From: Escherichia coli 042
Lineage (GTDB): Bacteria > Pseudomonadota > Gammaproteobacteria > Enterobacterales > Enterobacteriaceae
Length of the DNA stretch: 64,000 bases
Direction: 5' to 3' (one strand)
Assembly: GCF_000027125.1 (NCBI RefSeq)
Contig: NC_017626.1
Shown: one piece after another, positions 47,970 through 48,403 of the stretch
How positions within the stretch are numbered: position 1 is the stretch's first letter
Layout: each line of letters starts with the position of its first letter
Position numbers and translations under genes: made by a program
Notes under the pieces: model-generated
Database searches by the model: none
The model's input: only the letters and a program-made list of their open reading frames with translations
What the model was told of the DNA's origin: nothing

Positions 47970-48403
47970 ATGTCATTTACTGATATCTATCAGATTTCCG
48001 GTTCGGCGATGACGGCGCGCAAACGCTACGTCTGAATACCGTTGCCAGTAACCTGGCGAACGCCGAGGCACCTGCCGGCAGCGAGGCGCAGGCGTATAAA
48101 GCGCGCAGCCCGGTGTTCGCGGCGGTGTATCACCACAGCTTGCTGGCGGGAACGCATCGCCATGCCATTGACGGTGCCAGCGTGCAGGTGCAGGACGTGC
48201 TGCAAACCGGCGGGGCGGTGAAACGCTATGAACCGCATTCGCCGCTGGCGGATGCCAACGGCGATGTCTGGTATCCCGACGTCAACGTGGTGGAACAGAT
48301 GGCGGACATGATGTCGGCCTCGCGCGATTTTGAAACCAACGTCGATGTGCTCAACAACGTGAAAAGTATGCAGCAAAGCCTGCTGAAACTGGGAGAAGCC
48401 TGA
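47970..48403 (+). pseudogene. lfgC: Rod protein FlgC homolog disrupted by a +1 frameshift
   Basis: Frame 0 gives MSFTDIYQISGSAMTARKRYV-stop (TGA 48033-48035); the other frame continues with the conserved FlgC sequence QTLRLNTVASNLANAEAP...KLGEA; one extra base in the GCGCGC run near 48014-48020. Confidence 0.8.

Follow-up and report, generated by a model that had tools for sequence, protein, structure and literature searches.

A two-base GC duplication splits the Flag-2 rod gene lfgC of Escherichia coli 042

The FlgC-like gene of the Flag-2 (lateral) flagellar cluster of Escherichia coli 042, lfgC, lies in two reading frames, which raises the questions of whether the gene is truly broken, by what change, and at what cost to the flagellum. 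In this study, we have examined the gene within a stretch of 64,000 nucleotides, here called the window. The reading frame from ATG 47970, which has a Shine-Dalgarno-like GAAGGGA 5' of it, reads MSFTDIYQISGSAMTARKRYV and ends after 21 codons at TGA 48033-48035 (codon 22). The FlgC sequence is carried onward in the +2 (that is, -1) frame, from 48017 as AQTLRLNTVASNLANAEAP...SLLKLGEA to the stop at 48401-48403, and on both points our reading agrees with the first-pass annotation, which had described a stop after 21 codons and a continuation to 48403 in another frame. The native frame is thus left after residue 16, and some 127-128 FlgC codons remain in the -1 frame, with the N-terminal rod motif ASNLANA and the complete C-terminal rod domain among them. 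When the intact 143-aa LfgC of strain CB6837 was used as a tblastn query, its residues 1-17 were placed at 47970-48020 in frame 1 (94% match) and its residues 16-143 at 48017-48400 in frame 3 (99% match). As both fragments match the reference LfgC at these levels, the split is not a chance pattern. The only open reading frame called in the 3' part is one of 96 aa starting at GTG 48113, and no Shine-Dalgarno sequence was found before this GTG.

The nature of the lesion differs from what had been proposed. The first-pass annotation had placed one extra base in the GCGCGC run near 48014-48020; the site was right (48015-48020), but both the alignment and in-silico deletion put the size at two bases. 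Where intact alleles have ACGGCGCAAACG, the window has ACGGCGCGCAAACG, a change from (GC)2 to (GC)3, and alignment with the intact CB6837 allele opens a two-base gap (ACGGCGCGCAAACG in the window against ACG--GCGCAAACG). In a search of 1279 E. coli genomes with a query across the locus, 901 bases of the query corresponded to 899 bases in all matches listed. When a single base was removed in silico, a stop was still met after 26 codons, whereas removal of two bases restored an open reading frame of 143 aa, the length of intact LfgC and not the roughly 135 aa that had been expected. The single-base model was rejected on this ground, since a one-base deletion leaves the frame broken. The refuting test attached to that model, a continuous frame after the loss of one base, had no chance of a positive outcome, the lesion being of two bases. 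We propose that a 2-bp GC tandem duplication arose at lfgC codons 16-17, for which replication slippage in the run GGCGC would be the simplest route. The features of the locus are collected in Table 1.

Table 1. Positions of lfgC, its fragments and the Flag-2 features discussed in the text.
Feature	Position in window	Strand	Basis or remark
lfgC pseudogene (Flag-2/lateral FlgC homologue), whole extent	47970..48403	+	tblastn split; repaired translation against TIGR01395
lfgC 5' fragment, 21 codons plus TGA; native FlgC in the first 16 residues only	47970..48035	+	
(GC)3 run with 2-bp tandem duplication; (GC)2 in intact alleles	48015..48020	+	pairwise and multiple alignments
lfgC 3' fragment, 128 FlgC codons plus stop, +2/-1 frame	48017..48403	+	without start codon before GTG 48113
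lfgD (hook cap), 234 aa	48403..49107	+	ATG overlaps lfgC stop (TGATG)
lfgB (FlgB-like proximal rod protein), intact	47632..47967	+	tblastn, 111/111 residues, 99.1%
Putative sigma-54-type promoter TGGCAC-N5-TTGC, 5' of lfgB (start of lfgBCD... operon)	47580..47594	+	regex consensus match only
LafK	35299-36276		full length (tblastn)
LafW	56833-57807		full length (tblastn)
RelE/ParE-family toxin, between lafW and lafZ	57886-58224		full length (tblastn)
HTH antitoxin, between lafW and lafZ	58237-58533		full length (tblastn)
LafZ	58597-59436		full length (tblastn)

That the split gene descends from a FlgC gene is supported by several approaches. The repaired 143-aa translation scores 130.7 bits against TIGR01395 (the NCBIfam FlgC equivalog), over model positions 3-136 of 137 and above the curated FlgC cut-off of 102.1 bits; a sequence match of this kind is evidence of ancestry, not of present function. 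The 96-aa frame from GTG 48113 reaches 77.6 bits, below the cut-off and over model positions 62-136 only, and a family match was sought for the 21-codon fragment and none was found. The gene callers place PF06429 alone on the 96-aa frame, in contrast with PF00460 and PF06429 together on intact alleles, and a single uninterrupted frame with both rod domains (PF00460 N-terminal, PF06429 C-terminal) is absent at lfgC in the window. As no one frame carries both domains, we class lfgC here as a pseudogene of the FlgC family. The repaired protein also aligns over its full length with Salmonella FlgC (7bin_V; E 7e-26, 47% identity), and the gene sits between lfgB and lfgD in an operon of the flgBCDEFGHIJKL type, as judged from an annotated reference locus and tblastn.

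The distribution of the allele speaks to its age and origin. A 91-base query across the lesion matched 1161 complete E. coli genomes, and the insertion was present in none of them (0/1161); the comparison of the GC run with other lfgC alleles, which had been suggested as a check, therefore did reveal a different run, with the difference being two bases. The frameshift was found in two other loci. One of them (L004), reached via the 96-aa product, shows 100% identity with the window across 6291 nt and has 18 similar places besides; the other (L015), reached via the LfgD allele of the window, shows 1 mismatch in 20,705 nt and has 23 similar places besides. The remaining contigs with the 96-aa product had lesions of another kind or belonged to assemblies full of errors. 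The assemblies bearing the frameshift were deposited separately, and may be separate natural isolates or re-sequencings of 042. The repaired LfgC protein sequence was found exactly in 69 contigs. In two further loci (L013 and L014), lfgC is identical to the repaired window gene at all 432 nt, and indels are the sole differences over the surrounding 6.4 kb. Because these relatives are nucleotide-identical and yet intact, the duplication is recent and arose on an otherwise unchanged background. Based on these results, we conclude with high confidence that the lesion is a genuine, vertically inherited null mutation in lfgC, the proximal rod gene of Flag-2.

A second small lesion lies in the neighbouring gene. 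At 48552-48560, lfgD of the window has lost one of the copies of GACCCGACC, a 9-bp direct tandem repeat; the loss is in frame and removes Asp-Pro-Thr (DPT) from the conserved NQDPT...QL region at the N-terminus of FlgD, giving 234 aa as compared to 237 aa. The protein is identical to CBG33100.1. This deletion was shared by none of 1278 complete genomes (0/1278), which makes it private to the lineage, and it was also absent from the nucleotide-identical intact relatives L013 and L014; it accompanied the lfgC frameshift in all contigs examined. One could imagine that two private, slippage-type lesions in adjacent rod and hook genes (+2 bp in lfgC, -9 bp in lfgD) reflect selection for silencing Flag-2, or a poised, revertible state, a reading that we regard as improbable. 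If true, silencing could for example serve to avoid cost or immune recognition in the enteroaggregative lineage, and a poised state could revert by loss of one GC unit.

A more specific form of reversibility would be a phase-variable switch, in which slipped-strand mispairing would move the tract back and forth between (GC)2 and (GC)3, with Flag-2 going on and off accordingly. Such a switch would fit a lesion that adds just one unit to a dinucleotide repeat and that a 2-bp loss would undo exactly, but we consider it very improbable. Tracts known to switch at useful rates are far longer than 2-3 units, and 2-3 units are all that this tract offers. Furthermore, the tract is (GC)2 in all 1161 genomes, and the assemblies with the lfgD allele of the lineage that were examined all share their neighbouring proteins and fall into a single group, in whose representative no LfgC product is found. 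The 234-aa LfgD together with an intact LfgC was seen in none of the 24 contigs examined, and tract-length polymorphism was not found among close relatives, where there are two states, each fixed in its own lineage. Phase variation was rejected on the absence of tract-length variation in the 1161 genomes and in the same-lineage contigs. Rare spontaneous reversion of the GC unit is possible, although this would not be a switch.

An error of sequencing or assembly, with (GC)2 and an intact lfgC in the true genome, had been left open by the first-pass annotation. Miscalls are possible in short GC-rich repeats, and our own searches returned three loci (L005, L006 and L008) in which lfgC is broken in error-ridden long-read assemblies with many neighbouring genes split. 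The two assemblies that carry the allele of the window, L004 and L015, present the opposite picture, with neighbouring genes that are all intact. In addition, the frameshift was in the 2005 locus paper and was kept in the finished genome of 2010 (PMC2808357). The presence of the allele in separately deposited assemblies effectively excludes an error, and we attach an extremely small probability to it.

Bypass of the frameshift had also been allowed for. Full-length LfgC would be restored by programmed recoding, through either transcriptional slippage or a ribosomal frameshift of -1, and the -1 frame is indeed open from 47984, such that a -1 shift anywhere before 48033 would give a long product. 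Nevertheless, the two frames overlap without a slippery sequence: neither an in-frame X_XXY_YYZ heptamer nor a homopolymer of at least 5 was found in 47960-48060, and we see no recoding signal. Programmed frameshifts are conserved features of a family and not private to one clone, whereas here the frame change occurs in 0/1161 complete genomes and the nucleotide-identical relatives are in frame. With neither a slippery site nor conservation, programmed frameshifting was rejected as far as the sequence can tell, and we see virtually no likelihood of it.

The genuine null mutation in lfgC has to be seen against the state of the remaining cluster. Flag-2 starts at lfhA (28685) and runs past base 64000, with the rest of lafE/fliK, lafF, lafS, lafT and lafU lying outside the window. 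The other Flag-2 genes within it were full length and without stops in 40 of 40 cases when compared with reference proteins by tblastn, fliK being cut by the window end. [quoted passage not shown] The sigma-54 motif that we noted 5' of lfgB has also been described upstream of lfgB in strain PCN033 (PMC4578781). For the Flag-2 part of the window, the best match among 5426 genomes is 97.9% over 20 kb.

Several observations were made along the way on the surroundings of the gene. The block at 41758-47550 comprises a FAD-synthase-like gene, an 816-aa glycosyltransferase, a FliB-like lysine-N-methylase, lfgN, lfgM and lfgA, and shows 92-98% protein identity to CB6837, as compared to 99-100% for the flanking Flag-2 genes; it looks like a recombination mosaic round the flagellin-modification genes that ends just 5' of lfgB/lfgC. 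In CB6837, lfgL (L002 35991-36911) is annotated by RefSeq as a pseudogene with a 'missing C-terminus', while lfgL of the window (55887-56816) and that of L015 are frames of 309 aa that align over all 307 reference codons; the pseudogene call may be an artefact that arose in annotation from model length, not a real lesion. At the lfhA end, Flag-2 adjoins rayT, a REP-associated tyrosine transposase gene (27746-28240); at this border, the lfhA-lafU deletion scar is found in many E. coli (PMC6993521). Further away, positions 1-15000 hold a type VI secretion cluster (tssF, tssC, vgrG, tagH and others) for which several E. coli genomes show 100% identity; these genomes align in two pieces and hold 0.8-2.7 kb of extra DNA (in one case with an ISCro1 insertion), the window having the shorter form.

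With regard to function, FlgC is an obligatory proximal rod subunit in flagellar assembly. The 3' part of lfgC has no usable start in our reading and would yield no functional LfgC; without LfgC, rod assembly would be blocked. As FlgC is obligatory, Flag-2 is predicted to get no further than the MS-ring/export-gate stage. The early stop would also leave about 365 nt untranslated before lfgD and, given this stop and the overlap of the lfgC stop with the lfgD start, lfgD and the later genes are probably less expressed. From its sequence, Flag-2 of the 042 lineage is hence predicted to be dead. The first-pass annotation had predicted the otherwise intact cluster to be non-functional; the prediction of a dead system agrees with ours and with the literature, while 'intact' holds for reading frames within the window only and has to be qualified by the lfgD deletion. 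The cluster of the ST131 strain EC958 is intact, and nevertheless neither LafA nor motility could be detected under laboratory conditions (PMC4637896). The silence of an intact cluster makes the phenotypic cost of the lfgC lesion a prediction only.

This consequence would be void if another protein took the place of LfgC, either the Flag-1 FlgC or a 96-aa LfgC restarted at GTG 48113, making the lesion harmless. LfgC and Flag-1-type FlgC do share a fold and 47% identity; to our knowledge, however, the structural rod proteins are not shared in the dual flagellar systems of Vibrio and Aeromonas. The 96-aa product for its part is without the N-terminal half of the protein (model positions 1-61, with the N-terminal rod helix among them), falls short of the FlgC cut-off and would start from a GTG with no Shine-Dalgarno sequence, and PMC3032704 cites a negative swarming assay for 042, all of which leaves substitution with a negligible chance.

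The lfgC frameshift is a real pseudogene, already published for the enteroaggregative strain 042, and in this respect it is ordinary. Ren, Beatson, Parkhill and Pallen are said to have reported it in 2005 (J Bacteriol 187:1430). Later papers state that lfgC of 042 is frameshifted and that Flag-2 is probably inactivated, citing Ren et al. 2005 (PMC2808357, PMC3032704, PMC6993521, PMC4578781), and the lesion has become the textbook reason why 042, the prototype Flag-2 strain, is thought unable to build lateral flagella. What is added here is the exact nature of the lesion and its distribution, namely that several assemblies, deposited separately, carry it, that 1161 complete genomes do not, and that there are intact relatives identical in nucleotide sequence. 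Beyond the correct annotation of lfgC, this carries little weight. Nevertheless, tests of Flag-2 function in 042 should remove a full GC unit at 48015-48020 instead of a single base, and should take the 9-bp deletion in lfgD into account.

Other E. coli assemblies carry lesions of their own in this gene, in the region that corresponds to 47970-48110 of the window. A deletion removes lfgB and the 5' end of lfgC in L003; a 10-bp deletion or rearrangement lies near lfgC codon 35 in L007; and L006, whose assembly is rich in indels, has an extra A in an AAA beside the GC run. Taken together, these lesions suggest repeated, independent decay of lfgC.

Set beside known systems, the gene of the window resembles the intact LfgC of other Flag-2-positive E. 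coli (such as W, Crooks/ATCC 8739, PCN033, EC958 and CB6837), with 99% protein identity outside the lesion; the distinction is that these strains have (GC)2 and a continuous 143-aa frame, whereas the window has (GC)3 and a split gene. The proximal rod protein FlgC of Flag-1 in Salmonella and E. coli, seen in the cryo-EM basal bodies 7bin, 7cgo and 7e80, is a full-length homologue at 47% identity, and its ASNLANA-containing N-terminal and its C-terminal rod domains are conserved in the repaired LfgC; LfgC however belongs to a paralogous system, has a middle segment that is 9 residues longer and is frameshifted in the window. As compared to the published 042 pseudogene (Ren et al. 2005; Chaudhuri et al. 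2010, PMC2808357), it is the same gene with a frameshift in lfgC, in the same locus order (lfhAB-lfiRQPNM-lafK-lfiEFGHIJ ... lfgNMABCDEFGHIJKL-lafW-TA pair-lafZ-lafA...), and we detected no differences; the later papers on 042 say only 'frameshift', and the 2-bp GC duplication was worked out in this analysis. Finally, the Flag-2 locus is often deleted or disrupted in E. coli (PMC6993521). Within this wider attrition of accessory secretion and flagellar loci, of which the lfhA-lafU scar of Flag-2 and the decay of ETT2 are examples, lfgC of 042 represents one more lineage-specific inactivating lesion, and differs from them in that the change is neither an en bloc deletion nor an IS insertion, but a point-like slippage of 2 bp.
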